A stretch of 64,000 bases of DNA, taken from sequence record SRR33789315_132; one strand, 5' to 3'. Below, piece by piece: positions 5,556-23,738 of this stretch. The notes beneath the pieces are model-generated. The model was not told the origin of the DNA and searched no databases. It saw only the letters and a program-made list of their open reading frames with translations. Made by a program: the position numbers and the translations under genes. Position 1 is the first letter of the stretch, and every line of letters starts with the position of its first letter.

Positions 5556-6557
5556 ATGGAAGACAATTCTCACGATGACAAGGAGCGCATCATGGTGCAA
5601 TTAGGAGAAAGCGAAGACGTAGACGTCGATCAACCGCAAGAAAAAGAGAACGGCTCGAGAGCGCGCATGGCTGTCAGGGAGTTTGTAAAAGACTTTGATT
5701 TAAAGGCAGAAAAGGCGGCAGGAAATAGGCGAGAAGCCGATGTGACACGCCTCTATCTCAACGAGATCGGCGCCGCCGATCTGCTCAGTCATGATGACGA
5801 AGTGCACTTCGCGAGACTCGCTCGGCGCGGCAGTGCCATTGGTAGGAAGCGGATGATCGTCAGCAATCTGCGCTTGGTGGTGCGCATCGCGCGGCGCTAT
5901 CTCAATCGCGGCTTAACCCTGTTAGATCTCGTGCAAGAAGGCAATCTTGGTCTTCTCCGCGCTGTCGAGAAATTCGATCCCGAGCGGGGTTTTCGTTTCT
6001 CAACCTATTCTACTTGGTGGATACGTCAGACGATTGAGCGAGCCTTGATGAATCAAACTCGCACAATTCGCCTACCTATTCATATCGTAAAGGAGCTTAA
6101 CAGTTATCTGCGAATCTCGCGGGAATGTCTAAATGAGAATCTTCAAGAGGCGGTGCCGGAACAGATTGCTCAAGCCCTCAACAAACCGCTCGCCGACGTG
6201 CAGCGCATCCTTGCCTACAACGAGAGGGCTATTTCCGCCGATAGCGCCTTAGTGCCCGGGCAGGAACAAACCATCCTAGAAACGATTCCGGCGCCGCAAG
6301 AGAGCACGCCAAACGAAGTGCTGTTAGATCAAGAGGTCAGTGAGGCCGTATTGGCATGGCTGCACATGCTCAACACTAAGCAATGCGACGTAATCGTGAG
6401 GCGCTTTGGATTTCACGGACACGACGCGGGCACCTTAGAGCAGGTAGGGCGTGAGATAGGCCTTACTCGTGAGCGAGTACGGCAGATTCAATTGGAGGCG
6501 CTTGATAAGTTACGGGAGCTTGCGGCGGAATCTGGTTTCGACTCTAAGAGCTGGTGA
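5556..6557 (+). CDS. rpoS: RNA polymerase sigma factor RpoS
   Basis: [71 protein letters not shown]; downstream of nlpD. Confidence 0.93.
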
Positions 6558-6567
6558 GGGTAGATAC

Positions 6568-6592
6568 GGAGCCTTCTCATGTAGAAGGCTCC
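6568..6592. terminator. Hairpin between convergent rpoS and fdxA
   Basis: GGAGCCTTCT-CATGT-AGAAGGCTCC perfect 10-bp stem. Confidence 0.7.
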
Positions 6593-6614
6593 CTAGTAAA
6601 CACTAGCCGAGAGA

Positions 6615-6947
6615 TTACTCGGCCTCTTTCACTAGATGCTCAATCTTTCCGGGCACACCTTTCCACTTTTCGGCATCTTCCAATGCCGGTTTCATCTCGG
6701 TGATATTGGGCCATTTCTCGGCGAGTTCGGCATTGAGCGCCAGGAACTGCTGCTGATCATCGGGCAACTCGTCCTCGGCGTAGATTGCATCTACCGGACA
6801 TTCTGGCTCGCATAGAGCGCAGTCTATGCACTCGTCTGGGTGGATTACCAGGAAATTAGGGCCTTCATAGAAACAGTCCACGGGGCAAACTTCCACACAG
6901 TCTGTGTGCTTACAAAGTATGCAGTTTTCGCCAACAACAAATGTCAT
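6615..6947 (-). CDS. fdxA: 7Fe ferredoxin
   Basis: [17 protein letters not shown] and [12 protein letters not shown]; lies between rpoS and mutS. Confidence 0.95.
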
Positions 6948-7062
6948 GATCTCTCCATCTCACTGGGCCCGAGTAGTCGGGGGTCATTCAAAGGGGCCAA
7001 TTATAAATAGGTTGCCCCAAACATGGAAAATTCTTTTTCCAATATCCCCACTAATTCTGCCT

Positions 7063-9660
7063 TCACAGGCCTTGTTTGAGCTTATAAAGCAACTCTAGGG
7101 CCTGCCTAGCCGATAAATCGTCCGGATTGAGGCGTTTTAACTCGCCAAGCACTGGGTGCTCCGGTTCGACAAAAAGTTCGGCCTGCCAAGGCGCCTGCTT
7201 GCTGTTAGGTGTGCGAGCTTGCTCTTTGGTGAGGCTGTCGCGCTCTAATTGCAGGAGTTTCTCACGTGCCTGTTTTATCACGGGCATAGGGACGCCAGCC
7301 AGCTGGGCCACTTGCAGCCCATAACTTTGGTTAGCAGGGCCTTCTTTCACGCTATGCAGGAACACGATGCCATCGTCATGTTCCGAGGCATCGAGATGGA
7401 CATTGGATATGGTCTCGAACTGCTCAGGCAGTGCAGTTAACTCGAAGTAATGAGTGGCGAACAGCGTCCAAGCATGCAGCCGCTGCGCAATATAGACCGC
7501 ACTCGCCCAGGCCAGAGAAAGCCCGTCGAAGGTGCTGGTCCCGCGACCGACCTCATCCATGAGCACGAGGCTTTGCGCGGTGGCATTGTGCAGGATATTG
7601 GCAGTCTCCGTCATCTCGACCATGAAGGTAGAGCGACCACCGGCTAGGTCATCGGATGAGCCGATGCGGGTGAAGATGCGATCGATGGGGCCGATATGAG
7701 CACTGCGCGCGGGGACGAAGCTCCCGGTGAAGGCCAGAAGTACAATGAGAGCCGTTTGGCGCATATAGGTCGATTTACCGCCCATATTCGGACCCGTAAT
7801 GATGAGCATGTGGCGCTTCGCATTGAACTCCACGTCATTCGCAACGAATACGCTAGTGCTGACTTGCTCCACCACGGGATGACGGCCTTGCTCGATTCGA
7901 ATGCCGGGTTCGTCGACAATTTGTGGTTGGCAGAAATCCAATGTTCGCGCACGCTCTGCAAAGGTGTTGAGCACGTCCAACTCTGCCAAAGCCGCGGCCG
8001 TGTTTAATAGTGGATTGAGGTCCTCGGCAATCGTCTCCAAGAGTTGATCGTAGAGCGCCTTCTCGCGAGTTAGTGCTTTGCTGTTGGCACTAAGCACCTT
8101 GTCTTCGAACAACTTTAGTTCCGGAGTTATAAAGCGTTCGGCGTTCTTTAGTGTCTGGCGGCGAATATAGTCTGCCGGCATCTCGCTAGCCTGACCTCTG
8201 CTCACTTCGATGTAGTAACCGTGCACGCGGTTATAGCCCACCTTTAGTGTGCTTAGGCCGGTGCGCGCCTTCTCTTGAATCTCTAAGTCGATGAGGTACT
8301 GTCCTGCGTTGCTGCTGAGATTGCGCAATTCATCGAGTTCCTCATCATAGCCCGGGGCAATCACACCGCCTTCGCGGATAACGACGGGGGGGTTATCGAT
8401 AATAGCGCCGCGCAGAAGTTGCGCGAGCTCGGGATAATCGCTGATCTGTGTCTGCAGCTCAGACAAGCGTGCTGATTCACTATTGCTCACGATTTCGGCT
8501 AGCTGGGTATGCAGCTGCGGCAGTATTGAAAGCGCGTCGCGCAATCGGGCTAGATCGCGGGGGCGTGCCGTGCGCAGACCCACCCTTGCCAATATGCGCT
8601 CGATATCTCCGATCTCGTGAAGGAGAGGGTGCAACTGCTCGAAGCGATACTGCTCGATTAGAGTCGCGACCACATGCTGACGATGCTCGAGGGTCCTCTT
8701 ATCCCGTAATGGTCTGTGCAACCACCGGCTCAAAAGTCGACCGCCCATCGCTGTGGCCGTGTTATCTAGCACGGACACGAGGGTGTTGTCGGTGCCACCA
8801 GAAAGATTGCGGTCCAACTCAAGATTGCGGCGGCTTGCGGCATCTAATAACAGCGCATCATTAGGCTGTTCCAGTTGCAGTGTCTGCACATGAGGCAATT
8901 GGGAGCGCTGTGTCTCGCAGGCATAAGCCAGCAAACAGCCCGCTGCCTCTAGCGCCACAGTCAATTCTTCACAGCCAAAGCCCTGTAGATCTCGAGTACC
9001 GAAATGCTGCGTTAGTGCGCGGCGACTGCTCTCTAGATCGAACTCCCAGAGAGGGCGCCGTCGAGCGCCTTGGCGTGTCTCTAATGCCTCTAGCGCTTGA
9101 ACGCTTTCGTTTAGTAGAAGTTCTGCGGGGCGTACTCGCTCGATCTCGCCTAACATTCCTTCATAGGAGCGCACTTCACTGAGCACAAAGCGGCCACTAC
9201 TGATATCTAACCAAGCGAGCCCGAAATGGCCTTCACTTGAATGGGTGCCGGTAATAGCCATGAGAATGCTGTCGCGGCGCTCATTGAGTAAGGCCTCATC
9301 ACTGAGCGTGCCGGGCGTGATAATGCGCACCACGGCGCGCTCCACAGGCCCTTTGCTAGTGGCCGGATCGCCGATCTGCTCACAAACGGCTACGGAGACA
9401 CCGGCCTCCACCAGCTTCGCGAGATAGCGATCCGCCGCATGGAAGGGGATGCCGCACATAGGGATGTCTTTACCATCGGTTTTACCGCGAGCGGTTAGGG
9501 TGATGTCGAGAATCTTAGAGGCCTTGCGGGCATCGTCGAAGAATAGCTCGTAGAAATCGCCCATGCGGTAGAACAGTAGGTCGTCAGGGTGCTGTGCCTT
9601 GAGGCGCAGAAACTGCTGCATCATGGGCGTGTGGTTAGCAAAATCCTTTTGTTCACTCAT
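7063..9660 (-). CDS. mutS: DNA mismatch repair protein MutS
   Basis: [50 protein letters not shown] clamp-binding motif. Confidence 0.99.
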
Positions 9661-9906: not shown

Positions 9907-11820
9907 ATGCAGTTATTCAAGATAGTTTCCTTAGTGATAATTCAGCTTTCACTTTGCATAGCAATAAGCTTAGGGATTTCATCAACCGTGTTGGCGCAGC
10001 CAGGCAATGTTTTGCAAGTGGATGAGCTTGGAAAGGCAATTGATTTAGCACCGTTTACCTCCTTTTGGGTGGATACCGAAGGCAGTTCACTAGAGACGGT
10101 GTTTGCCAATGAAGGAACAGATTTTCAAGCCCTTCCTAATCAAGAGATATCCTTTGGTTATACGGCTAGCCGAGTATGGTTGCTAATCAATACCCATAAC
10201 AGAAGCTTCCAGCCTATAGACTTGATGTTAGATACCAACATTAAGTATATGAGACCACTAGAGATCTATGAGATTAGCAATGGAGGAATGCCGCGGTCAG
10301 TTCTCTATAACAATGAAAACTCCTTGTTTTCTTCTCGCACCATCGCGCAGCCAAAGATTGTCGTTCCCCTCCAATGGCAGCCCAGAGAGACCAAGCAATT
10401 ACTGCTCCGTGTAGGCGCGGGCGGTGCACTTTCGCTGCCATTAGTACTTAACACTCAAGCGCAAGTGGCCAGAAAATACGATAACGCCCGAACTTTCGCC
10501 GCATTTTTTGCAGGCGTTCTAATCAGTCTTATATTGATCAATATTTTTCACTTTGCAACGGTCAAACGCTGGGAGTATTTGTTATACGCCTTGATGGAGA
10601 GCTCGATATTGCTTTTTGTTTTACACAACGAAGGCTTCGCTTTTCAATATTTATGGCCCAATAGTCCTACGTGGAATGCGCACGCTACTCAAGTGCTAGG
10701 GCATAGCAGCAATATGCTAGCATCTCTTTTTGCGCTGGTTTTTTTGGAGTTACGTCGACGCGCACCATTGTTTTTCAGAGCATTGATGGGATTCTCTAGC
10801 GTCTCTGCAGTGCTACTGCTTTTAACCCCTTGGTTGGAGCCAAGAGTTTCAAATCAATTGGGGCTCATAATCCTGACTATTGGCAGTAGTGTGATTATTG
10901 CGGCTGGTTTTCGGGTACTTTTTCGAGGTCATAAACCCGCATTTTATTTCGTGCTCGGTTGGTTGTTCATGGGTAGTGGTGCTGCAATTTATGGTTTTTC
11001 AAGTCTTGGTTTGATTCGGCTCCCTATTCCAGCGATAAATGTCTTGAAGCTCAGCATACTCGTTGAGGCAACTCTGATTTCATATGGTCTTTCTGCATTA
11101 CTGAAGTTTTTATCCGATAAAATAAGGAGTTCACAGGAAGAACTAATTTCAATTACGGAGAAACGTTTGAGCGATGCGTTGGAGCGAGTAAAACTAGAAG
11201 AAAGTCGAGTGCATGCAGAGCGAGAGTTAGCCGAGAAAGCTTTAGAAATTGCGCGCACAAGTCATGACATCCGGCAACCTATTCACTCGCTTCGGTTAGC
11301 GCTATTAGCGCAAGCGCGTAACCAGGAAGATGCGTCAAATGTAGAGATGTTCAACCGCACGCTCGATCACATGGAGGATTTACTAGGCAATATCAGCGTG
11401 AGTGAGAGCGCATCTGCAAAGACCACCATTACTGGGTATGGGCAACTGACCTCCCAATTATGTGAGGAGTTTGCAGCGGCAGCATCTGAAGCCAATATTG
11501 AGTTACTTCACGTTCCGAGTTCTGTTCCATTAACAACTACGGTAGTACCATTGAAACGTGTATTGAGCAATTTGCTCTCCAATGCAGTGCGCCATTCGAA
11601 TGCATCGAGAATTCTTTTGGGTTTAAGGAGGCGCTCTTTCGGAGTAGAAGTGATGGTCATCGACAATGGCCAAGGTCTCGACCACGCTAATTCGCAGACT
11701 TCAGGCACTGGCCTAGGGATGGGAATTATTGCTGCCCTTTGCGAGGAGAATAATTGGGTAAGCAAGATAGAAACCGAAACAGGCAAGGGAACCTGTTGTA
11801 GCATTGAGGTTTACACATGA
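9907..11820 (+). CDS. 7TMR-DISM sensor histidine kinase
   Basis: Signal peptide, periplasmic DISMED2-like domain (SFGYT.SRVWL), about 7 TM helices (GFAFQYLWP), H-box SHDIRQP, NLLSNAVRH, DNGQG, GLGMGI. Confidence 0.85.
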   Translation: MQLFKIVSLVIIQLSLCIAISLGISSTVLAQPGNVLQVDELGKAIDLAPFTSFWVDTEGSSLETVFANEGTDFQALPNQEISFGYTASRVWLLINTHNRSFQPIDLMLDTNIKYMRPLEIYEISNGGMPRSVLYNNENSLFSSRTIAQPKIVVPLQWQPRETKQLLLRVGAGGALSLPLVLNTQAQVARKYDNARTFAAFFAGVLISLILINIFHFATVKRWEYLLYALMESSILLFVLHNEGFAFQYLWPNSPTWNAHATQVLGHSSNMLASLFALVFLELRRRAPLFFRALMGFSSVSAVLLLLTPWLEPRVSNQLGLIILTIGSSVIIAAGFRVLFRGHKPAFYFVLGWLFMGSGAAIYGFSSLGLIRLPIPAINVLKLSILVEATLISYGLSALLKFLSDKIRSSQEELISITEKRLSDALERVKLEESRVHAERELAEKALEIARTSHDIRQPIHSLRLALLAQARNQEDASNVEMFNRTLDHMEDLLGNISVSESASAKTTITGYGQLTSQLCEEFAAAASEANIELLHVPSSVPLTTTVVPLKRVLSNLLSNAVRHSNASRILLGLRRRSFGVEVMVIDNGQGLDHANSQTSGTGLGMGIIAALCEENNWVSKIETETGKGTCCSIEVYT

Positions 11821-11836
11821 TTGTGCAGGGCAGATT

Positions 11837-12451
11837 ATGAGAATAGCGATTGCCGATGACCATGAGATCTACCGCATGGGGCTTAAATTATTGCTGAATA
11901 GCATGTCTGATATGGAAGTGATAATCGAAGTCGACTCAGGCAATCGTCTATTGCAGGCTCTCAAAGCAACCCCCGTTGACCTCATTATTCTCGACCAATC
12001 TATGCAAGATGGGACTGGCTTAGACTTTCTCAAAACTCTCAATACTTGGGTTAAAGCTCCGCAAGTCATATTGCTCACGGGTAGTAGTGGCAGTGCAATT
12101 CTACATGAGGCAAAGTCGCTTGGCGTTGCGGCGGTTGTCGCGAAGCAAGGCAGTGGCGAGGACTTGGTCGATGCCCTAGAATTTATTCAAAAACAAAGCT
12201 TCTATGCTAGCCCGGCTTTCGCCAGCCTAGTGGATTCCGAGAATATTCTCGATCGATTGACATCGCGAGAGCGCGAAGTTTTAACTTACATAATTCGTGG
12301 CGAATCCACTCGGGCGATCTCCGAGATACTCAATGTGTCTTTCAAAACTATAGATACGCACCGCAGTCGTCTGATGAGCAAGCTCGATCTGCATAGCGTA
12401 GCAGAGTTAATGCAGTTTGCCCGTGAAGTGGGATTGCTAGAGAAACATTGA
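11837..12451 (+). CDS. NarL/LuxR-family response regulator
   Basis: IADDH, LDQSM, LLTG receiver motifs; LTSREREVL...KTIDTHRSRLMSKL HTH. Confidence 0.93.
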   Translation: MRIAIADDHEIYRMGLKLLLNSMSDMEVIIEVDSGNRLLQALKATPVDLIILDQSMQDGTGLDFLKTLNTWVKAPQVILLTGSSGSAILHEAKSLGVAAVVAKQGSGEDLVDALEFIQKQSFYASPAFASLVDSENILDRLTSREREVLTYIIRGESTRAISEILNVSFKTIDTHRSRLMSKLDLHSVAELMQFAREVGLLEKH

Positions 12452-12501: not shown

Positions 12502-12517
12502 TCAGGTAAACACCTGA
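12502..12517. promoter_or_regulatory. Palindrome upstream of the collagen genes (candidate response-regulator site)
   Basis: TCAGGT-AAAC-ACCTGA, perfect 6-4-6 inverted repeat. Confidence 0.45.
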
Positions 12518-12581: not shown

Positions 12582-13721
12582 ATGCCACTACGTACTCTAA
12601 TTGCAAAGACGGCGCTATCCGTAGCCTGCTTTGGAATGCTGGGCGTTGTCGTTGCCAAAGAAAGTCATTTGATAGAGGCCTATATCGCGGATGGCGATAT
12701 TGTTCTCATTGGCACAGATCTTTGCCTTGCCAATCCTGTCATTCGCATTGGATCTACAGATATCTATCCAAGTACTACTATCTGTGAAGATATCGACAAC
12801 GAACTACAAATGATGGTTGCGACTACAAGCGCTCTTGACCTGAGTGCTGGCAGTTACGGTGTGCAGGTACGCGCACATGATGCCAAGTCCAATGATAACT
12901 CTGCGTCTTTCTACGTCACCCTTGGGGCAATAGGTGCCGATGGATTAGCTGGGGAGAAAGGCCAACGAGGACCAATTGGTGCAGTAGGACCACAGGGCCC
13001 AATGGGACTAATAGGTCCTATAGGCGAACTAGGCCCGATCGGCGCTACAGGGCTTCAAGGCGTCACTGGGTTAGAAGGGTTGCGAGGACAGCAAGGTCCT
13101 GCTGGGGAGATTGGTGTGCAAGGGGTTCGAGGACCCGCAGGCGGGCTTGGCCCCGTGGGTGAAATTGGTGAGCAAGGCCCGCAAGGAGTGCAAGGTCCAC
13201 AAGGCGTGCAAGGTCCTCAGGGTTTGCAAGGGCTTCGCGGCCCCCAAGGTTTGACGGGCTTAACGGGCGAGCAAGGGCCGCGAGGAGCGCAAGGCTCTAC
13301 AGGTTTAGCGAGCACGGTAAGAGGACTTACGGGTCCCACTGGGCCTCAAGGGCCAGTGGGAACAGTGGGGGCTGTCGGTGACATAGGGCCGCAAGGTGAT
13401 AGAGGACCTCGCGGCGAGCGAGGAGCCGTGGGTGAGAAAGGCTATGAGGGTGCGGTCGGAGATCCCAACTGGACCCGAACTCAATATGAATATCCATGCG
13501 ACGGAATCTCATCAGGAACTAGGTATTGTGAAATCCGAGTTTATTGCCCTTCTTCTAACCAGAGAATAATTAGTGGCGGCGTTTACACAAACGTGGACAG
13601 GATCAAAATTGCGGAAAGTTATCCTGGTAAGGATGGCAATAACTGGTACGCGAGAATTAGTCATACCAACTCTCAGACAATTCGCTTTGTGGTGCCAATT
13701 GTTTGCATGAACGTCAATTGA
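12582..13721 (+). CDS. Exported collagen-like protein 1
   Basis: Signal peptide, Ig-like N-domain, 59 Gly-X-Y triplets with STVR interruption, Cys-containing C-terminal domain. Confidence 0.9.
12924..13466 (+). repeat. Gly-X-Y repeat region, 43+16 triplets
   Basis: Counted from the translation; 543 nt. Confidence 0.9.
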
Positions 13722-13732
13722 GGAGCAATACA

Positions 13733-14917
13733 ATGAGGATCCTAAAAATGAGAACACTAGTATTGATCTTAGGCGCGCTTTTCGCGGTGACGACGCAGGC
13801 TAAGACCGAGCTAATAGAGGAAGCATTTTTTACTGACAATGATTTTATTCTGGTAGGTCAGAATTTATGTGACTCGAAAAAAGATCTAGCCGTAGAAATC
13901 GGTGCGTCGACCCCAGCACAATTGAATGTTGTTGCGTGTCAACAAATTGGTGAGGGCGATGCGCTGCGCGATTTAGTGATAGCCGCCATCGATTTTGCGA
14001 TGGAGCCTGGTAACTACGCGGTCTCTTTATTTGAGCTTGCTTCACCTGGCAAGAGTAGTAATAGCGCTAAGAGCACCAAGAGTAGCAAAAGTAAGGAGAT
14101 AGCTAATTTTGTAGTGAGTTATGGAGTGCAGGGCGTGCAGGGGCCAGCGGGTGAACAAGGCTTGGAGGGTCCGCAAGGTCCGCAAGGCGAGATTGGTCAA
14201 ATTGGACCTCAGGGGCCGCAGGGTCCGCAAGGCGAACAAGGACCAATTGGGCCAGAAGGTTTGCAAGGGCCGACAGGTCCAGTAGGGGCCGTCGGGGAGC
14301 AGGGTCTGCAAGGATTGCCAGGAGAAATAGGACCACGCGGAGAACAGGGACCTCAAGGCCCAATGGGACCAATTGGAGAGTCGGGGCTTGCTGGTATTGC
14401 TGGGCCTCAAGGCCCCATCGGACAGCAAGGCGAGGTTGGGCCTCAAGGCCCACGAGGTCCGCAGGGGCCAGTTGGACTTACTGGACCGATAGGATTGACT
14501 GGTGCTGCCGGTCCAGTTGGATTGGTTGGGGCAATCGGTCCCCAAGGCCCTCAAGGCCCGCAGGGTCCTGCTAGCACTTTGCAAGGGCCTCGCGGCGAGC
14601 AAGGACTCATTGGGCCCAGGGGGTATCGAGGACCTACTGGAGACCAAGGAATTCCTGGTATTCGATATTGGTCGAGGACGACTGCTGAGAATAGCTGCCC
14701 TTCGAAAAATCATTGTTCGATGCGTCTAGAGTGTCCTGGAGGAAGAGTGATCTTAGGAGGGGGCGCCTATGTGAATGGTTCGATCTCGGAGGAAACAGAA
14801 CTAAGAGAAAGCTATCCAGGTGCTGCCGGTGATAACTGGTATGTGCGCATCTTCAACAACGAAAGTAGCGCAGTGACTTACCAAGCTATCGCGATTTGTG
14901 GATTAATGAGCGACTAA
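13733..14917 (+). CDS. Exported collagen-like protein 2 (paralogue)
   Basis: GAGGAG RBS, signal peptide, same architecture, 59 triplets with STLQ interruption, CPGG..ILGGG..SYP..W..AIC head. Confidence 0.9.
14123..14665 (+). repeat. Gly-X-Y repeat region, 50+9 triplets
   Basis: Counted from the translation; 543 nt. Confidence 0.9.
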
Positions 14918-14937: not shown

Positions 14938-14985
14938 ACAAAATTACGCCCTGTTAGGTGCATACCTAACAGGGCGTAATTTTGT
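14938..14985. terminator. Long perfect inverted repeat / intrinsic terminator after the collagen genes
   Basis: ACAAAATTACGCCCTGTTAGGT-GCAT-ACCTAACAGGGCGTAATTTTGT, 22-bp stem. Confidence 0.85.
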
Positions 14986-15649: not shown

Positions 15650-17521
15650 TTAGTTTGAAGAAGACGCCGAGAATAGGAGTTGTGCCTGATTGGCAAACTC
15701 TCCAAGGACCACCACATTGCCATGTTGCACAGTTCCCTCAAGTCCCCCGGTATAGCGCCAGTTATTTGGTAGTTTAATGCTCAAACCCGCAATGCGGCCT
15801 TCGATACTAATCTGCAAACGCTTTTGGTATGCCGCTGGGGTATCCGTTTGTATGACTGCGCTATCACGAGTCGCCCACCATTGTCCGAATTGGGCAATTG
15901 TTCCAAACCAAGCGCGCTCTTTAAATTCTGCTACAAAGCCCTTTTCAAATTCCAGCTTGTGATCAAGCACATCAGTGTGAATCAACACGTTCACAACACC
16001 CCCGATTCGCGCAATTTTATTAGCAAGCGCTATTGCCTCAGGTAGGCGATCGCCAAGTCGGCCACTCTCGTCTTCTATGGTGATGGGGATCTCTATGATG
16101 TCGAGTTCGGTGTCGTAGCTGCGTGAATAGTTGCTGCGAAATGGCAAGTGAGTAAACGCACTATTGGCGGTCATGCTGGAACTATATTGATAACCGGTTG
16201 CCTGCAACATCTCTGGTAGCGAGATAGGCATAGAGAGATGTCCAGGTCGAAATGAAACAGTATCTTGTTCGACAAGGGTGTCTAAGAGATATTTACTGAT
16301 TCGCAGCTCACCTGAGATGCTCCCGTCTCTCACCGCATCGAATGCTGACACAAATGGTCGGTAACTTGGGTATTGCTCAGTCCCACTCCCGATAGGCATG
16401 CCCTTGAATTCGTTGGAGTGAGCGACGCTGTGACTCCCGATCTCCATGCCCTGGTCGCGAAGTTTCGTAAGGATGGCTTGATTCTCCAGATTGAAGAATG
16501 CTTCGTCGCTGAAATCAGTGACATATTTAGTCTGGATGAAATAGGTGGCTGGAATGTTTTGGCTGAATTCAAATTCTGCGTATGCCAATGTATTTTGTAG
16601 CGAGCGAGTATAGTCAATGTCGTGAGTAATGAGTGCTGTGAACTCGCGGTTAAATGGCGTTGGTAGTATCTGTACTGCATCTTGAGAGCCTTCCTTATAA
16701 ACCGCCGCCATGAATTCCAGTAGGGTATCTAGCATCGGTTGGTAATTGTTGACGTAGGTATCCGCCAATCCAGAGAAGCGATTGTTTTGTGCACGAAGAA
16801 TGAAATGCCCGAAATCAAAACCTACGGCGTAGGCGTGGCCAACCCGACCGTTAGCAGTGAAGAAATTATGAGTAATCGCGGCACTGCCATCATCGTAAGT
16901 GGCGATCGCAGGATGTTTAAGTTCGTGATAACTAACGCCAGGAAAGGGGGTGGGGTCTACCAATGAAGCGAGACGAATTCTAGACTCATCAATCTCAAGA
17001 ATAGAGTCTGGGTCAAAGTATGCCGGATCGAAGTTAACTTCTACTAGATCGTTGCGCTCCTCTGTGGTTTCGAATCCAAACACTGATGGTAGGCCACCGC
17101 CAATGACCGAGAAAGCGATGAGGGTGTGACCGTCGCGAACGTGATTGGCTAGTGCACTCAGTGTCTCAGGCTCAGTGTTTGAGCCTGTAATAGAGGGGTA
17201 TACCAGTATCACCTCATGCTGCAGGGCCTCATCGATGGATTGCACTACTCGAAATGGGACACCAATACTCTTGAGTCCATGGGCGATGCCGAGCCATGAG
17301 GCATTGCTATCCTGCAGTAGGACGGCGATGCCACTAGTCGACTCATCAAAATAAGTCTCTGGCACCGTGCGCGGTGGAATGTTGCTTGGTATTACAGTGC
17401 TCTCGATTGGTCCGGTTAACTCTGGGAATGCCGGAGGGGGAGGCACTGTCAGATTAGTATCATAGACGAAATAAGCGATGCCCATGCCAATACAAATGGC
17501 GATAAAATTACGCTTTGTCAT
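15650..17521 (-). CDS. Periplasmic polysaccharide deacetylase (CE4/NodB-like C-terminal domain)
   Basis: N-terminal anchor; THDID, ATYF, EIGSHSVAH, SFRPG, YSSS, EIPIT, LIH motifs. Confidence 0.82.
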   Translation of the reverse strand: MTKRNFIAICIGMGIAYFVYDTNLTVPPPPAFPELTGPIESTVIPSNIPPRTVPETYFDESTSGIAVLLQDSNASWLGIAHGLKSIGVPFRVVQSIDEALQHEVILVYPSITGSNTEPETLSALANHVRDGHTLIAFSVIGGGLPSVFGFETTEERNDLVEVNFDPAYFDPDSILEIDESRIRLASLVDPTPFPGVSYHELKHPAIATYDDGSAAITHNFFTANGRVGHAYAVGFDFGHFILRAQNNRFSGLADTYVNNYQPMLDTLLEFMAAVYKEGSQDAVQILPTPFNREFTALITHDIDYTRSLQNTLAYAEFEFSQNIPATYFIQTKYVTDFSDEAFFNLENQAILTKLRDQGMEIGSHSVAHSNEFKGMPIGSGTEQYPSYRPFVSAFDAVRDGSISGELRISKYLLDTLVEQDTVSFRPGHLSMPISLPEMLQATGYQYSSSMTANSAFTHLPFRSNYSRSYDTELDIIEIPITIEDESGRLGDRLPEAIALANKIARIGGVVNVLIHTDVLDHKLEFEKGFVAEFKERAWFGTIAQFGQWWATRDSAVIQTDTPAAYQKRLQISIEGRIAGLSIKLPNNWRYTGGLEGTVQHGNVVVLGEFANQAQLLFSASSSN

Positions 17522-19248
17522 TGTTGATCCCTGTAGATTTCATCGAGGCCGTGTAGAGCGACGCCAATGAAAGACGACCAACTACTTAATTCTTCATTGA
17601 GGCGGTAAGCATTCTCGTTGAGACGTTGCTGGTTGCCTCCGAAGGTGAGGGATGAGGCAGAGAAAAGCCGTTCTGCGGTTTGTTGATAAGCGTCTCCTGC
17701 TAGGTTCTCCTGTGCGTCGGAAAACAGCACTAGAATAGGCGTTGACCCAATCTGGAGTTGCCATAGTTCACCAGCATCAGTGCTTTTCTCGAAGACGCGT
17801 TGTGTTTCATCCTCTAGCGTTCCTGTCTCCAGAGCGACTCGTACGGCCTGCTGATTGCGATTTCCCCACTCTAGAAAAGGTGTCATTCCCGTTAGTAGCT
17901 GCTGGTAGTTGGTGCGGTAGTTCATGATCGTTAGGCTGATATTGGGAAGTGTCAACTCATCGAGTAGCTTAGAACCCCAGCTTGCATGTGAGCCCCACCA
18001 CACGGGTAGCACTAGGTCTAAGGGCAGCGCTTGCCCTGCAGTGCGCCTTGCAAGCGTGATGGTCTGTAGATAGCGCTCTCGCCAATAATCGTGCGCTAAG
18101 CCGAAGCCTGGCAATAAATAAGGCTCTATATCGAGTTGCACTCCTGCCAATTTCTCCACGTTTGGTACCCACGCATTGTAGCGAAGGTAGGCAAGGATTC
18201 GTGTTTGGAGTTCGGAGAAGTTGCCAGCAATGACATCATGGCGATCTCCTATGACGGCCCAAATCGTAATATCTCTCGAATTCGCTTCCCTTATGAAGGC
18301 TCGTAGTTCATGTGGATTCTGTACTTCTCCTACAGCCGTTGTTGGGGCGGTAATATAAAACTCATCGAGACCTTCAAGTTCTGCCAGAGTCCAAAAAAAA
18401 TCGGGGCTATTTAACCAGAAGGATGGATTCCAGACCCACGCTGACCGTGAGCTTCTTGTAGGGGATTCGGAACTTGGTTTTAACACCAGGGCGTTGATGC
18501 GGAGAGTGGCCGTCTCCTGTGGGCAGGTAATGGTAAGGGCTTTCCAACTGGCATCGTTGTCGGGTAGTTGAAAAGTACGATTGACCACTCGTGTGCCTCC
18601 AGCAACTAAGAGGTGGCCGATCGACAGAGTTGCTTCGTTCGCAATGCGCTTCTCATCGGCAATCGCGAGTTGGAAATCACCATCGCCAGACACGACGATT
18701 TGGAGTTGCGAATTCGCTGGCCAATGTTCAGGACTTTCAAGTTGCACTCCAGCGACTTGGCTGCCAGCGGAGCAGTTCAATTGTGTGCCGTCAATCCAAT
18801 GCGCGCGCTCCTCGACTCCAAACGTCAGAGAGTCGAAATTAGTTAGTTGGTTTTCTACCTGATTGCTAGGGACGACTGGCTCGGCAGCTGGCTCCGCTCC
18901 GATCACTTCGCTGACTTGCGCGCGACTCTCAGAAAAACTGCCTTGTAAGATCAGTCGATTCTGTGGCGTGAGACTTTGGGAAGAGGGCAGTAGTGCGCTC
19001 CACAAAATAGAGTCTGTGCTCTGTGGAATTGTGATTGATTCGCATAGAGATACATCGAGAGGCTCATCGCTTGTCACGAGCAATTGCCGTTGCCCATCTT
19101 CTGCGTAAAACTCTTTTACGATCACTTGAGGCTGAAGTGCGAGATCCGGACTACAGACTCCAATGGTGGCCGCCTCACTCAAACTGCTGAGTAAAAGTGC
19201 ATTGACAAACCCAATGAAGTAAAGGGTTTTGGTTGGAATTAGGGTCAT
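17518..19248 (-). CDS. Exported protein with putative glycoside hydrolase-like TIM barrel
   Basis: Signal peptide; C-terminal AWVW, IWAVIGD, GVQLDIEPY, IMNYR motifs; start chosen at MTLIP. Confidence 0.55.
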   Translation of the reverse strand: MTLIPTKTLYFIGFVNALLLSSLSEAATIGVCSPDLALQPQVIVKEFYAEDGQRQLLVTSDEPLDVSLCESITIPQSTDSILWSALLPSSQSLTPQNRLILQGSFSESRAQVSEVIGAEPAAEPVVPSNQVENQLTNFDSLTFGVEERAHWIDGTQLNCSAGSQVAGVQLESPEHWPANSQLQIVVSGDGDFQLAIADEKRIANEATLSIGHLLVAGGTRVVNRTFQLPDNDASWKALTITCPQETATLRINALVLKPSSESPTRSSRSAWVWNPSFWLNSPDFFWTLAELEGLDEFYITAPTTAVGEVQNPHELRAFIREANSRDITIWAVIGDRHDVIAGNFSELQTRILAYLRYNAWVPNVEKLAGVQLDIEPYLLPGFGLAHDYWRERYLQTITLARRTAGQALPLDLVLPVWWGSHASWGSKLLDELTLPNISLTIMNYRTNYQQLLTGMTPFLEWGNRNQQAVRVALETGTLEDETQRVFEKSTDAGELWQLQIGSTPILVLFSDAQENLAGDAYQQTAERLFSASSLTFGGNQQRLNENAYRLNEELSSWSSFIGVALHGLDEIYRDQQ

Positions 19249-19267
19249 ATGGCCTTTGGACAATTCA

Positions 19268-20602
19268 TTAAAATTGGTATTGCAAGCTAAGCGCAATGGA
19301 TTCCCGAGAATAGGAGTTCTTGCGCACATTGCGGCTAAAGTCGAAACGAATGGAAGTCCCTTCCCCTAGCTCTATACGTGTGTAGAGATGGTGCGCATTT
19401 GTCTGTGTGGTCAAATTGAGTTCTGTCTCAGGGGCGTCAGTGTAGTTATAACCCACGAGCACTTGCTCATCTATTTGCCAGTGCGCGCCTATATTCCAAC
19501 CGACAGTCTTCTCGCCAAACTCGTCTTTCACAATGCCAACGCCTGGTGTTAGCCAAGCATTTAAATTAAGCAAGTAGTGCGTAAAATCCAGCTTTAACCA
19601 TTGCACGTCGCCATTGCTATAGCGCGATTGTGTAAACGAAGCGCCGAGTGTAGTACTGCCTGAATTCTCACTAGCGAGCATCAAAAGGAAGTTACCACCA
19701 ACACGAATCCGCTGCTCTGGTAATACTTCACTATCGGGAGTGCGAGCGTATGCGAGTTCGAAAGTTGTGTTTTTCTTGCCATACAGTCCGCCTACCTCGA
19801 AGAGTGTGTCTTCGAATCCAAAGCGTTTCGCTTGTTCGCTGCGCAGGTAAACCTGCTTATCTAAGCTTGCACGATATCGGTATTCGAGGGTGCGATCGTA
19901 CCAGTTCTGAAAGCCTGCTTGATCCAATTCGCTTTGCTTAAAGCTGGCGGCAATCTGGTTGTGGACAATATTTGATTGATTCGAGCTTTGGCGCCTAGTG
20001 GTGACATCGATGTGAGTAGGCGCTAAGACTTCCGCACGCTCCAGCACGTCTTCGGCGATCAGATCATTTCCTGCGGCTAACTCAGTATCGTAGAGTCCAA
20101 TCACGGCATCGAGACTAGAAGGATCTTGCGCGATTACTAGATTAAATTGTCTGCGCGCCTCGGCAAAGCGGCGCTGGTAATAATAGACACGCGCCTTTAA
20201 TGAGAGCGCTTCATAATTGTTCGGGTCGATCGCTAATACACTATCAGCGATCTCTATTGACTCGTTATAGGCTCCCGAGTAGGAGAGAATTCTAGCTTTC
20301 GCTAATATCAGTTGAATGTCATCGGGATATCGCTCTAGCGATTTATCGACAATCTCAATAGCTTCGGTATAGCGTTCTTGAAACGCGATCACCATAGCGA
20401 GCAAAAAATCCACCTCATTGGTTTCTGCGGCTAGAGGCAGTGTGCGCTTAAGAGTCTCCTCTGCTGCGGGAAAATCGCCGCTATTTCGTAACTGTAAGGA
20501 TTCTTGAATCAACTCGTCATAGGTCGCTTCGGCGGCGTTGGCAGCAATCCCGTGAAGATTAAACAAAAAGCAAAACAGGGCTGTGTATCGAAAATTAAGC
20601 AA
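19268..20602 (-). CDS. TPR + YaiO-like outer-membrane beta-barrel protein
   Basis: Signal peptide, several TPR-like repeats, alternating beta-strands, C-terminal LQYQF. Confidence 0.78.
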   Translation of the reverse strand: MLNFRYTALFCFLFNLHGIAANAAEATYDELIQESLQLRNSGDFPAAEETLKRTLPLAAETNEVDFLLAMVIAFQERYTEAIEIVDKSLERYPDDIQLILAKARILSYSGAYNESIEIADSVLAIDPNNYEALSLKARVYYYQRRFAEARRQFNLVIAQDPSSLDAVIGLYDTELAAGNDLIAEDVLERAEVLAPTHIDVTTRRQSSNQSNIVHNQIAASFKQSELDQAGFQNWYDRTLEYRYRASLDKQVYLRSEQAKRFGFEDTLFEVGGLYGKKNTTFELAYARTPDSEVLPEQRIRVGGNFLLMLASENSGSTTLGASFTQSRYSNGDVQWLKLDFTHYLLNLNAWLTPGVGIVKDEFGEKTVGWNIGAHWQIDEQVLVGYNYTDAPETELNLTTQTNAHHLYTRIELGEGTSIRFDFSRNVRKNSYSRESIALSLQYQF

Positions 20603-20603
20603 G

Positions 20604-21257
20604 TTACTTCCTCACTTTGAGTAAGAATTTAAACAATTCGTTGTTTTCCATTTCCAGACTAATGGTATCGGTAGCCGATCGATTCAAAGTGAACGTCGAT
20701 CTGACTAGTAGGATCAGGTATAGACTGGCCAGCAAGGCCATTGCAGAATGTGCCGGTGCGCCCGATGAGGAGAGCACAAATATTAAGGGCCCGAGCATAA
20801 GCACATGATAGGGGATAGCCGCAAGAAGAGAGGGATAAAGTGAAATTAACCCTCCGGCCGACATGCCCGCGATGATGAAGACAATGAACGTCTCAGTCCA
20901 AGGGGCGAGATAAAATACTCCCAGTAACGGCAGTATTCCCCAACAGATACCTGATGCATAAATGAAAATCAGATAGACTCTAAGCCAGCGGCGTAGTTTC
21001 TTGAGGTCTTTTTTAAGGCGCTGAAAAATACCGACCATGATGCTGCGCAAAATTGAAATCAACACAATTGCGCCTAGCCAAATAGAGAGTACTGATTCTG
21101 ATTCGACAGAACGAAGCGTTGCGAATACTATCAACGCGTTGATAATGGAGATGAGAAAACTTGATGCGCCGTTGGCAGATAGAGTTTTCAAGGTCTCGTA
21201 TTCGATACTCGCCTTTAGATCTAACTCTGAATCAGAGTAATCTGGGTTTTTAGACAT
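20604..21257 (-). CDS. Stand-alone multi-TM sensor-like domain
   Basis: About 6 TM segments, RRW......SGICWG pattern, ends SLEMENNEL with no output domain. Confidence 0.6.
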   Translation of the reverse strand: MSKNPDYSDSELDLKASIEYETLKTLSANGASSFLISIINALIVFATLRSVESESVLSIWLGAIVLISILRSIMVGIFQRLKKDLKKLRRWLRVYLIFIYASGICWGILPLLGVFYLAPWTETFIVFIIAGMSAGGLISLYPSLLAAIPYHVLMLGPLIFVLSSSGAPAHSAMALLASLYLILLVRSTFTLNRSATDTISLEMENNELFKFLLKVRK

Positions 21258-21297
21258 AAATCGGCCAATCCGGTAGTAGCAGTAAATTAGTAAAACT

Positions 21298-22707
21298 TTA
21301 TTTCTTCGCGAATCCTGTGCGGGTCATTTCACCCCATTTATGCTTAGCGTTGGTTAACCATTCTATCGTACCTTGGATCTTGTAGAACATGTTTAACTGA
21401 CGATAGCCAAAGCACTCTAGAAACGAGTAAAAAGTCAGCAAGAGAAAGCCCTTGATGCTGGTAGTGCCAGGGAAAGTCATTTCGTCTAGAAGAAAGCTAA
21501 ACGTGGACAAAAATACCGATAACATAACTCCGAACATGAAGATTATGCCTGCGTCTATATAGTCAATTTGCTGGGCTAAAATCAAGTAAAGCGTATAGGT
21601 ATAACCCGCTAACTCAACAAAGGGGCTAAGCCATTCGAAGAGAATAAAGAATGGGAACGCCACCCATCCGATAGTGCCACTGCGAGGTTTAAATAACAGG
21701 CTACGATTGAGGAAAAGACTCTCTGAAAGCCCTCTGTGCCAACGCCTGCGCTGAGAGGCAAAGACCTTAAGCGTTTCGGGGGCCTCGGTCCAGCACACTG
21801 GCTCGGGCACATACTCAACGTGAAAAGGTTCTTTTTTCTCCATCATAGTGCGATACATGCGCAGGATTAACTCCATGTCCTCACCAATCGTGGCCGTCTT
21901 ATAGCCACCGGCCGCCACTACAGTGCTTTTACGAAACACACCGAATGCGCCAGAGATGATCAACAAGCCTTTGATTCGCGACCAGGCTACCCGGCCATAT
22001 AGGAAAGCGCGTAAATACTCGACCATTTGAAAGGTCGCTAAGAAATTTGAAGGCACTCCTCGACTAACTACTTGTCCATCTTCGACCTTGCAGCCATTGG
22101 CAATACGAACCGTTCCCCCGCTGGCTATAGTCTCGGGGTGGTCCATAAAGGGCTGTACCACTTTTATTAGACTATCAGGCTCTAGAATAGAATCCGCATC
22201 GATGCAACAGAACAAAGGACTATGGGAGATATTGATACCCGCATTGATGGCGTCGGCCTTACCACCATTGACCTTATCGACCAGACGCAGGTTCTTTACT
22301 TTGTGCGAGAGATAAACCTTCTTGATCTGCGCACAGGGAAGAGAGATTGAGACATGTTCGGGAAACTCCTCGAAGTCAAACTCCTTAATAAGCGTCGCTA
22401 AGGTTTTGTCTTTGGAGCCGTCATTAACCACGATGATCTCAAGGCGTGGATAGTTCAGCTTTAAAAGCGAATTTACTGAAGCGGTAATTGTTAGCTCTTC
22501 GTTATACGCAGGAACAACAATAGAGATCGGCGGCTCTTGTCTATTGTCCAAGGATTCATCTTTCTCGGTTCGCTTCAGGCGCCGATAAGAGCGTAAAGTA
22601 TCGAACGCAATGACATTCAATACGATGTAAGAGCCAGTACACGCTAATACGTATACTAGGAAGCCAATAGAAATTGCGTACTCGATACTGTTCATGCCGT
22701 CATCCAC
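21298..22707 (-). CDS. Processive GT2 glycosyltransferase (PgaC/IcaA/chitin-synthase-like)
   Basis: VPAYNEE, NDGSKD, NGGKADAIN, DADS, SGAFG, GEDME, QRRRW; C-terminal TM helices. Confidence 0.92.
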   Translation of the reverse strand: MDDGMNSIEYAISIGFLVYVLACTGSYIVLNVIAFDTLRSYRRLKRTEKDESLDNRQEPPISIVVPAYNEELTITASVNSLLKLNYPRLEIIVVNDGSKDKTLATLIKEFDFEEFPEHVSISLPCAQIKKVYLSHKVKNLRLVDKVNGGKADAINAGINISHSPLFCCIDADSILEPDSLIKVVQPFMDHPETIASGGTVRIANGCKVEDGQVVSRGVPSNFLATFQMVEYLRAFLYGRVAWSRIKGLLIISGAFGVFRKSTVVAAGGYKTATIGEDMELILRMYRTMMEKKEPFHVEYVPEPVCWTEAPETLKVFASQRRRWHRGLSESLFLNRSLLFKPRSGTIGWVAFPFFILFEWLSPFVELAGYTYTLYLILAQQIDYIDAGIIFMFGVMLSVFLSTFSFLLDEMTFPGTTSIKGFLLLTFYSFLECFGYRQLNMFYKIQGTIEWLTNAKHKWGEMTRTGFAKK

Positions 22708-23738
22708 TGCTTTTCAATCATGACGTGATGAAGCGTTTCGGCTGCATTTTTGTCGTTCAAGGTAGTGCTGAGTACTTCTAAGAACTGATAGTCTTTGTCC
22801 GCCAACTTCACTATTGCTTTTGCAGCGCGATAGCGGAACCACCAATCTTTGTTTTTTAACAAGGGGATGATAAGCGGAATGTCTTCGATATCCCCGAGTT
22901 TGCCGAGCGCATTAGCGGCCTGAATTCGCAGGAAAGTAGTTTCATGTTCCAAGAAAGGTATGACGATAGACTTTTCCTTTGGGCCCCCAAGATTGCCGAC
23001 GGCGCGTAGTAAGGATCCAGCCTCTTCGTTGTCACGAGATTGATGGAGTTTCTCGATGACCATGGGGAGTAGGGCTGGATCCGAGCTGCGCTCGGCCAAA
23101 GCGATGAAATTTTTAATCGTATAATTCGGGAGTCTATCGAGAAAGGGTTGTAAAAGAAGTAGGATTTTTCCACCACCTGCAGCGCCAATCTGAATAGTGA
23201 TTGCAGGAGCGAGTTCCGAGAACCGGAACAGTGTTCTAATCACCGCTTTCTCAAAGTTCTTAGCTTGCGTTCGCACGAGTGTTGTACAGGCGCGTAATGC
23301 AATGTTGCGATTTCTAGAGCCCAAGGCAACCCAGACGTATTTTTCGATTCCGTCATCCGAAATCCACTGAGCAGCAGTCAGCGCTAGCATGGTTTCCCAC
23401 ACAGGACGTTTAAACAATACGAAGCTTGATGGGCGCAGGATACGGTAAATAGTGCGGTGAAGCCCAATCTTAATCGCTATCGCGTTGAGCTTCTCAGATT
23501 CCGGGGAGCGGCTCTTCGAACGATACTTCGTCCATAACTCCAATACGACAGGCCAGTCACGTTTCTTGATCCTTGGAGTTTCCAATAACTCAAATTGAAA
23601 AATTAGCGACCACGAGGATTCTACCCGAGCCAGGCGATTGCGATTGACGGTGTAGGTAAACCGAATAGCCATGAGGTAGAGCGTTGTCATGATCACCAGC
23701 GCCATCAAAACCAGAGTCGCATAGAAGAGGGTCTCCAT
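22692..23738 (-). CDS. Membrane-anchored HEAT-repeat protein
   Basis: N-terminal TM; LRIQAANALGKLG, WWFRYRAAKAI HEAT-like repeats; overlaps the GT2 start. Confidence 0.8.
   Translation of the reverse strand: METLFYATLVLMALVIMTTLYLMAIRFTYTVNRNRLARVESSWSLIFQFELLETPRIKKRDWPVVLELWTKYRSKSRSPESEKLNAIAIKIGLHRTIYRILRPSSFVLFKRPVWETMLALTAAQWISDDGIEKYVWVALGSRNRNIALRACTTLVRTQAKNFEKAVIRTLFRFSELAPAITIQIGAAGGGKILLLLQPFLDRLPNYTIKNFIALAERSSDPALLPMVIEKLHQSRDNEEAGSLLRAVGNLGGPKEKSIVIPFLEHETTFLRIQAANALGKLGDIEDIPLIIPLLKNKDWWFRYRAAKAIVKLADKDYQFLEVLSTTLNDKNAAETLHHVMIEKQWMTA

Follow-up and report, generated by a model that had tools for sequence, protein, structure and literature searches.

C1q is encoded by tandem paralogous chain genes, and its chains combine near-equal collagen stalks, which carry an interruption, with a trimerising C-terminal beta-sandwich head to give mixed-trimer subunits. 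One report describes it as heterotrimers of the chains A–C, with a collagen-like stem and a globular domain (PMC4774423). The prokaryotic collagen-like proteins Scl1 and Scl2 (Streptococcus), Lcl (Legionella) and BclA (spore formers) carry Gly-X-Y repeats without an obvious hydroxylation system next to a globular trimerisation domain, vary between strains in repeat number, and are surface-exposed or secreted. A 2022 review describes the characterised prokaryotic proteins as homotrimers without exception, a property said to limit their use as models for the heterotrimeric collagens of animals (PMC8968730). For BclA1-3 of C. difficile, where the possibility of heterotrimers was examined in silico and discarded, AlphaFold 3 is reported to have given confident homotrimeric heads and no interaction between heads of different BclA proteins (PMC13188886). 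Among bacteria, linked collagen paralogues find their closest precedent in the Pcl triplets of Pasteuria ramosa, which are reported to keep a fixed order and orientation and to have been duplicated and moved as a unit (PMC13233619), and for which heterotrimers are mentioned as a possibility (PMC7743900). In this study we analyzed a 64,000-nucleotide (nt) stretch of sequence record SRR33789315_132 (referred to below as the window), in which two adjacent genes of a marine-type gammaproteobacterium, here named colA and colB, encode divergent collagen paralogues whose Gly-X-Y parts are exactly equal in length. Sequence comparisons and structural models lead us to give a probability of about one half to the reading that ColA and ColB form one mixed triple helix nucleated by resistin-like heads.

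The pair resembles C1q in having paralogous tandem chain genes with collagen parts of matching length and register. It differs from C1q in that there are two genes instead of three, in being bacterial and in carrying an extra Ig-like N domain, and the mixed trimer is in this case one that we infer. ColA and ColB resemble the Scl, Lcl and BclA proteins in the general features listed above, with a predicted trimerising head and predicted secretion, but they form a conserved pair with matched lengths, and they belong to none of the three NCBIfam families compared: the scores of ColA and ColB were 106.4 and 113.3 for Scl2 (NF038329; cut-off 325), 81.8 and 85.8 for Scl1 (NF038330; cut-off 400), and 107.1 and 103.5 for Lcl (NF046116; cut-off 500), in each case obtained with the collagen part alone. 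Both proteins end directly after the head (VPIVCMNVN and AICGLMSD), with no C-terminal LPXTG anchor. Like the Pcl genes, colA and colB are collagen paralogues lying in tandem on the same strand and kept as a unit, in this case of two genes, not three. Pasteuria, with which the comparison is one of descriptions only, is a Gram-positive endospore former with three genes per unit and dozens of copies, and no claim of co-varying helix lengths or of a charge register was seen in the excerpts of the Pcl literature. Within the passages retrieved from full-text articles (main texts), we found no demonstrated natural prokaryotic heterotrimeric collagen, no co-varying helix lengths in bacterial collagen paralogues, and no collagen stalk joined to a head of the resistin/PCSK9 C-terminal domain (CTD) type.

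The two genes (colA, 12582..13721, plus strand, 379 aa; colB, 13733..14917, plus strand, 394 aa) code for proteins of the same architecture, composed of a predicted signal peptide, an N domain, a collagen part and a C-terminal head. Overall the proteins are 33% identical, and their N and C domains are homologous. Both belong to the Pfam family Collagen (PF01391), with E values of 1.4e-27 and 2.2e-27 and scores of 95.6 and 95.0 bits against a gathering cut-off of 27.2. A Pfam scan of the two proteins identified no other family at E <= 1, and no further collagen-like open reading frame (ORF) was found in the window. The colA ORF is preceded by a ribosome site, GAAGAGGG, 7 nt 5′ of its ATG at 12582. 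The ATG of colB lies 11 nt past the colA stop codon, which is overlapped by a GAGGAG site, and from this arrangement we conclude that colB is translationally coupled to colA. A hairpin with a 20-bp stem and a T-rich tail (14939..14984, plus strand) is located 22 nt past the colB stop codon. No terminator-like site was found between the two genes, which therefore look like one transcription unit, a two-gene operon.

The first-pass annotation had noted that both helices occupy 543 nt and are made up of 59 triplets plus one four-residue break, and our recount gave exactly these values. The collagen part of ColA (12924..13466, 181 aa) consists of 43 triplets (12924-13310), the break STVR and 16 triplets (13323-13466), while that of ColB (14123..14665, 181 aa) consists of 50 triplets (14123-14572), the break STLQ and 9 triplets (14585-14665). 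The flanks are in the same register, as had also been proposed: upstream, SFYVTL/G in ColA corresponds to NFVVSY/G in ColB, and downstream, GDP/NWTRT corresponds to GIR/YWSRT. The triplet sequences themselves differ as widely as originally described, since ungapped alignment of the non-Gly positions gives an identity of 0.23 at best, and this is reached at an offset of −18 residues, not at 0.

A single genome cannot tell whether such an equality goes beyond chance, and triplets were therefore counted in orthologous loci, as the annotation had suggested. Scanning of genome contigs yielded one locus with the pair and scanning of metagenomes four, two of which are near-duplicates of others; none was found in viral contigs. 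These loci comprise L001, from a metagenome-assembled genome of Gammaproteobacteria, with its near-duplicate L003; L002 with its near-duplicate L005 and genome G491, the latter being identical to L002 in both collagen parts; and L004, a 1.4-kb contig on which a complete B-type gene comes after the end of an A-type gene. The A-type end of L004 matches P0153, and P0153 (A-type) and P0154 (B-type), each on a 7578-nt Logan contig that we take to be one and the same, were counted as the same lineage as L004. Homologous-protein searches that started from the head or the N domain of colB returned no match, and the B orthologues come from the loci only. The pair is rare: in the family of genome G001 it occurs in 2 of 251 genomes, and a sample of 401 genomes from the order yielded it once; another genome of this order, G357, gave a weak match to the head only, at a locus (L008) without a collagen ORF. 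In MutS the window shares 90% identity with G491 and 82% with G001, which places three of the lineages within one bacterial family.

The lengths of the A and B helices track each other in all four lineages: 114 and 114 aa in P0153/P0154 (L004), 171 and 171 aa in L001 and L003, 181 and 181 aa in the window, and 228 and 231 aa in L002, L005 and G491. The match is thus exact in three lineages and within one triplet in the fourth. Every helix begins right after the motif F-x-V-x-x and ends one residue before W-x-R. For P0001 only an A-type helix is available, of 163 residues (37 triplets, SSIA, 16 triplets); P0156 is also of A type. The observed pairing of A with B lengths is the single best of the 24 permutations (r = 0.9998; summed difference 3 residues, compared with 23 for the next best), and with independent lengths drawn uniformly from 114-231 aa all four pairs would fall within one triplet at P of about 3e-5, both figures being illustrative, as the lineages are few and related. 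The two genes lie 10-40 nt apart everywhere and have been kept together in all four lineages while their neighbours changed; the pair itself is the only constant among the compared loci.

In a tree of the N and C domains, the bipartition between A and B had 97/94 support, and the three close lineages formed an A clade supported at 100/99; P0100 and P0021 are on long branches, and their placement is less sure. The split between A and B is older than the lineages, and both genes have therefore changed length several times in parallel. Gene conversion was considered as a cause of the matched lengths and was rejected, since the similarity of A to B within a genome does not exceed background in either protein or DNA. 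At non-Gly positions the identity between A and B is 0.23-0.28 within genomes and 0.18-0.28 between genomes, and it is never best at offset 0. DNA matches between A and B of the same genome (50.7, 49.1 and 84.0 bits) are at background level and all off register; by comparison, the collagen parts of the window and L001 orthologues align from base 1, with 91.9 bits for A and 120 bits for B. Co-variation in four of four lineages, without gene conversion, supports the proposal of the first-pass annotation that the matched length is under selection.

We then asked whether the residues of the two chains fit each other when these are placed flush in one helix. A study of collagen alignment reports that misaligned chains have fewer axial salt bridges (PMC11923368). 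In a triple helix, a basic Y residue of triplet n has as its neighbour an acidic X residue of triplet n+1 in the next chain (the KGE/KGD geometry), and the axial test counted such pairs with A and B flush. Summed over the four lineages, the net number of opposite-charge axial pairs was 10 from A to B and 10 from B to A. This total of 20 ranks first of 32 offsets (mean 5.9, standard deviation 3.5 at the other 31). Counted among A chains only, such pairs numbered 2 (rank 23 of 32), and among B chains only they numbered 6 (rank 1). When the triplets of B were shuffled, none of 5000 shuffles reached the observed axial count; a wider score that includes lateral contacts gave p = 0.0004, and shuffling within blocks of 4-12 triplets, by which the regional charge density is kept, gave p from 0.004 to <0.001. 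In shifts of B by −20 to +20 triplets, the flush position ranked 3, 2, 1 and 3 of 41 in the four pairs (the fourth being, in this case, P0100/P0021). Cognate A/B pairs had z values of 1.5, 0.8, 2.8 and 1.6, while the 24 non-cognate values lay on both sides of zero, between −1.4 and 2.5. Since different lineages pair different positions, the pairs are not inherited motifs. Regarding composition, the six mixed trimer registers had 15-21 net axial pairs, BBB had 13 and AAA, with 5, was the poorest of the eight; none of the mixed compositions stands out (15-21 axial pairs, or 33-41 with lateral pairs added). This in-register pairing is suggestive of A and B sharing a helix, and because of it the evidence leans, of the two alternatives named in the first-pass annotation, to co-assembly rather than to a fixed distance that both must span.

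The position of the breaks bears on the same question. The ColA break (STVR, 13311..13322, plus strand, in the context GLA-STVR-G) and the ColB break (STLQ, 14573..14584, plus strand, in the context GPA-STLQ-G) share the pattern Ala-Ser-Thr-aliphatic-x, and the SSIA break of P0001 lies at the same place as that of ColA, with 16 triplets between it and the head. In both window chains the break shifts the Gly phase by one added residue, and at flush alignment the two therefore cancel: Gly columns are shared over residues 1-129 and again over 155-181, with a one-residue mismatch over residues 130-154. The first-pass annotation had held the seven-triplet offset of the breaks against a simple heterotrimer. 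This objection proved weaker than stated, as phase is lost only over the 130-154 stretch, although the offset is still mild evidence against a mixed helix, just as the cancellation is mild evidence for one. The cost to a mixed trimer would be a 25-residue stretch that is non-canonical, or a change of chain stagger there. The collagen study cited above notes that the chains of a heterotrimer may differ in their interruptions, which can be of unequal length or missing from some chains, and that the offset between chains can then change from one side of an interruption to the other (PMC11923368). In the lineage that bears breaks, one of the same size in both chains would have a reason in a mixed trimer and none in separate homotrimers.

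The C-terminal heads are the candidates for bringing the chains together. The ColA head (13467..13718, plus strand, 84 aa) and the ColB head (14666..14914, plus strand, 83 aa) each contain four Cys residues and are 33% identical. The heads of this type, 83-84 aa long, have 18 invariant positions, including the four Cys, GG, ESYPG and NWY. A HMMER search with the ColB head retrieved 569 proteins at E <= 0.001. Most of the 150 listed matches are about 270-330 aa long and have three matched stretches, that is, three modules per chain, and the ColA head is homologous to the single modules of these proteins. Among 152 proteins examined, only P0001, P0002, P0021 and P0100 join a long collagen part to the head; P0076 has 8 triplets. 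The three-module family was aligned from 116 proteins of 255-340 aa, with longer and shorter proteins and the four collagen-bearing ones left out. Comparison of profiles by hhalign matched the window heads to each of the three modules with a probability of 95.6-98.7%. The possibility that the A and B heads are equivalent to different modules of the family was rejected, since both match modules 1, 2 and 3 in the same score order. Apart from their relation to the heads, proteins P0003-P0152 represent a large family of bacterial secreted proteins, uncharacterised so far and about 290 aa in size, with three (in some cases five or more) Cys-bounded modules and without a Pfam family (model m8170c9b2df38).

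The AlphaFold2 model of the three-module member P0009 is a confident one, with a predicted local distance difference test score (pLDDT) of 94.2 and a predicted TM score (pTM) of 0.87. Its best matches in the PDB were the CTD of PCSK9 (7anq_A, E 1.5e-6, with a target-based TM of 0.61) and the APC-beta domain found in perforin-like proteins of apicomplexans (TgPLP1: 6d7a, 5ouo). The match list also includes 2qtw, an entry whose title states the structural homology of the PCSK9 CTD to resistin, and none of the listed matches is described as C1q or TNF. Direct searches at the level of sequence returned less: neither Resistin nor PCSK9_C1-C3 of Pfam matched the window heads at E <= 1, the only match of the head profile in the PDB was at chance level (E 0.4), and the profile of the three-module family matched the TgPLP1 sequence weakly (E 0.004). 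An Atlas match of 0.81 to a cluster with PCSK9_C1/C3 in 10% of its members is a lead only. The fold proposed for the window heads is derived from homology to modules of the P0009 type and from the complex model described below.

The proposed likeness of ColA and ColB to resistin, the PCSK9 CTD and the APC-beta domain of TgPLP1 would lie in small disulfide-bounded beta sandwiches arranged three round an axis. Resistin itself is trimeric, with heads of this kind on a coiled-coil stalk; in ColA and ColB the stalk would instead be a collagen triple helix. Since the head is homologous to modules that occur three per chain, with a predicted arrangement round a pseudo-threefold axis, a single head behind a collagen tract is most likely a trimerisation knob. 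It is not the gC1q/TNF jelly roll: the heads have no Pfam match, and the homologous modules match the PCSK9 CTD. By analogy, the pair would work like C1q or type I collagen, yet it is a member of neither family and has a head of another fold class.

The tails and heads were modelled as a complex of two A chains (tail plus head, 114 aa) and one B chain (tail plus head, 110 aa). This A2B prediction reached an ipSAE of 0.83 (0.83, 0.85 and 0.83 in separate runs), while the best of three controls reached 0.00. The runs agreed in at least 94% of contacts, with a partner pLDDT of at least 83; contacts were seen over residues 1-28 in each of the three chains as well as from head to head. The score mark that we applied is reached by 51 of 78 solved complexes and by 2 of 108 mismatched pairs, although the A2B job differs from those used for this calibration. 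The model supports the view that tails and heads can form a trimer containing B.

Taken as a mechanism, these results suggest that the operon encodes the two chain types of a single secreted rod. The rise per residue in collagen is 0.286 nm, so that 181 residues would give a length of about 52 nm. ColA and ColB would be secreted via their predicted signal peptides, three heads would associate and nucleate the triple helix, and zipping would proceed toward the N terminus. The trimer would be a mixture of A with B, with pure A3 the least favoured form. Both ends would be held in register, which would require an equal number of residues in the two chains, and we propose that for this reason a triplet gained or lost in one gene is matched in the other and the breaks cancel.

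Several observations weigh against this mixed helix. There are only four independent lineages, so that the permutation p value can be no better than 1/24, and in one of them (L002) the lengths differ by a triplet, 228 against 231 residues. The charge counts are small: the four lineages have 3, 4, 8 and 5 axial cross pairs. For the window the z value is no higher than 1.5, and its 3 axial pairs all fall in the last 9 triplets. Moreover, the scoring scheme was devised for this analysis, and the window breaks were entered in it as a dummy triplet. Complementarity of bulk charge, with one basic and one acidic chain, was tried and rejected, both chains being net acidic in every lineage. The self-pairs of B mean that B3 is not disfavoured, and the breaks lie 21 residues apart, which puts a mixed helix out of Gly phase between them. 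Finally, the complex prediction cannot separate A2B from A3 or B3, as a close relative of the true partner can also pass.

The stronger of the alternatives, though a less probable one in our estimate, is that A3 and B3 are separate homotrimers that stand side by side in one structure and span the same distance; they might, for instance, be pillars connecting the cell surface, or a layer of exopolysaccharide, to heads arranged in an outer layer. Co-varying lengths would be expected in this case as well, and the one-triplet difference of the L002 lineage fits a distance requirement better than strict matching of residues. Breaks at different heights in A and B would be harmless in such pillars, B has axial self-pairs of its own, an exopolysaccharide operon accompanies the pair both in the window and in L001, and homotrimers are what the 2022 review and, in agreement with it, the first-pass annotation describe for all characterised bacterial collagens. 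A distance of about 50 nm should, however, tolerate a few triplets, yet three of the four lineages match to the residue, one of them by way of a one-residue break in each chain. The charge peak between A and B occurs at the exact Y(n)-X(n+1) geometry in both directions, which is specific to one helix and is not predicted by packing of helices side by side, and A alone is poor in axial pairs, AAA being the poorest trimer. That the equal lengths have no functional meaning, being inherited from the duplication, restored by conversion of the whole collagen block or coincidental among few lineages, is highly improbable: tandem paralogues with repetitive DNA are a good substrate for conversion, and with nothing changed within L001/L003 or L002/L005 the independent events are few, but four lengths in A and four in B mean that each gene must have changed three times or more, with a matching change in the other on every occasion, the A–B similarities within genomes described above are at background, and the Ser/Lys linker of ColB drifts between close strains while the longer collagen repeats do not.

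Hydrophobic leaders ending in VVA-K (ColA) and TQA-K (ColB) were read by eye as Sec signal peptides (12582-12656 and 13733-13801, plus strand), with predicted cleavage after VVA and TQA, respectively. The N domain of ColA (12657..12923, plus strand, 89 aa, one Cys pair) was modelled by AlphaFold2 as an all-beta, Ig-like sandwich of eight strands (pLDDT 84.2, pTM 0.75); Foldseek gave no match at E <= 0.001 and only weak similarity to generic Ig/IPT-type folds, the best at E 0.017. The N domain of ColB (13802..14122, plus strand, 107 aa) is homologous to it by alignment and contains an extra Ser/Lys-rich linker (approx. 14030-14090) that precedes the helix. In this linker, L001B (10341-10682) and L003B (10341-10664) differ by a six-residue unit, KSSKSD, and a contig from an estuary study has a 27-nt deletion at 14050. 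Linker length thus drifts between close strains, while collagen length is constant between L001B and L003B. Among the sequencing runs listed for the stretch none is of RNA. The estuary study comprises three DNA runs with small shares of the stretch, and its contigs on the stretch, 66-406 nt long and none across a collagen part, are therefore uninformative on the helix length of that strain.

Two irregularities were noted among the A-type genes. In the colA orthologue of L005 (approx. 8105-9319), triplet 34 has Cys in place of Gly (GDT-CLT-GPK, compared with GGT-GLT-GPK in L002A), which is either a natural substitution or an assembly error. The A-type protein P0157 (353 aa), of the P0001 cluster, has the same helix but a prematurely ending head that closes with a different sequence (…SHTTRARFVS), as if its 3436-nt contig were truncated or carried a frameshift.

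Directly upstream of the pair in the window, Pfam domains identify a sensor histidine kinase (9907..11820, plus strand; 7TMR-DISM extracellular and 7TM domains, HATPase) and a response regulator (11804..12451, plus strand; receiver and LuxR/GerE helix-turn-helix domains). The kinase is also linked to the pair in L001 and L003 (70% identity), where copies of the regulator that are 81% identical precede the pair. An inverted repeat, TCAGGT-N4-ACCTGA (12502..12517), was recognised from sequence and alignment, and was also detected by the hairpin search, about 65 nt 5′ of the colA start. Its arms, TCAGGT-N4-ACCTGA(CGC), are invariant in the window, L001 and L003 (approx. 9070-9090 in the last two) amid otherwise diverged upstream regions of colA, and its 4-nt centres differ (AAAC, GTTT and ATTT). 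It may be an operator for the neighbouring LuxR-type regulator or, alternatively, form an RNA hairpin.

The kinase-regulator-collagen block lies after rpoS and mutS (5556-9660, mutS on the opposite strand) and is followed by a synthase-dependent exopolysaccharide operon (15650-23738, minus strand) that converges on the collagen pair. According to Pfam, the operon encodes a polysaccharide deacetylase, a 603-aa protein of unknown function, a protein with tetratricopeptide repeats and a YaiO-type beta-barrel, a 217-aa protein of unknown function, a family-2 glycosyltransferase similar to synthases of chitin and poly-N-acetylglucosamine, and a HEAT-repeat protein. Five of the exopolysaccharide genes (52-72% identical) also adjoin the kinase-regulator-colA-colB block in L001, but divergently, while in L002 and L005 the neighbours of the pair are unrelated housekeeping genes and an IS200-like transposase. 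The latter gene (Y1 type; 12376-13071 in L005) is located 1.7 kb downstream of the pair, which fits movement of the pair as a unit. Further to the right in the window, a Wzc-type tyrosine kinase and chain-length regulator (58037-60355; Wzz, GNVR and AAA domains) probably marks the start of a second polysaccharide locus, of the Wzy type, near the right end. In two lineages the pair is found together with a two-component system and an exopolysaccharide operon, a linkage which suggests that ColA and ColB may act at the cell surface or in the matrix.

Somewhat more tentatively than the mixed helix as such, we regard the pair as a possible natural prokaryotic heterotrimeric collagen, in which co-transcribed chains would be selected into one helix by resistin-like heads, and lengths, one-residue breaks and axial salt bridges would co-evolve, giving a bacterial equivalent of C1q or type I collagen, evolved independently of the animal lineage. 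If this is true, the pair would offer a simple, hydroxyproline-free system, expressible in E. coli, for the study of chain selection, register and interruptions, and a new chain-selecting head of about 83 residues for designed heterotrimeric collagens. It also makes an evolutionary question testable, namely how two repetitive genes keep matched lengths while their sequences diverge to saturation within one family. The head, for its part, ties a large uncharacterised family of three-module secreted bacterial proteins to the fold of the PCSK9 CTD, resistin and the APC-beta domain.

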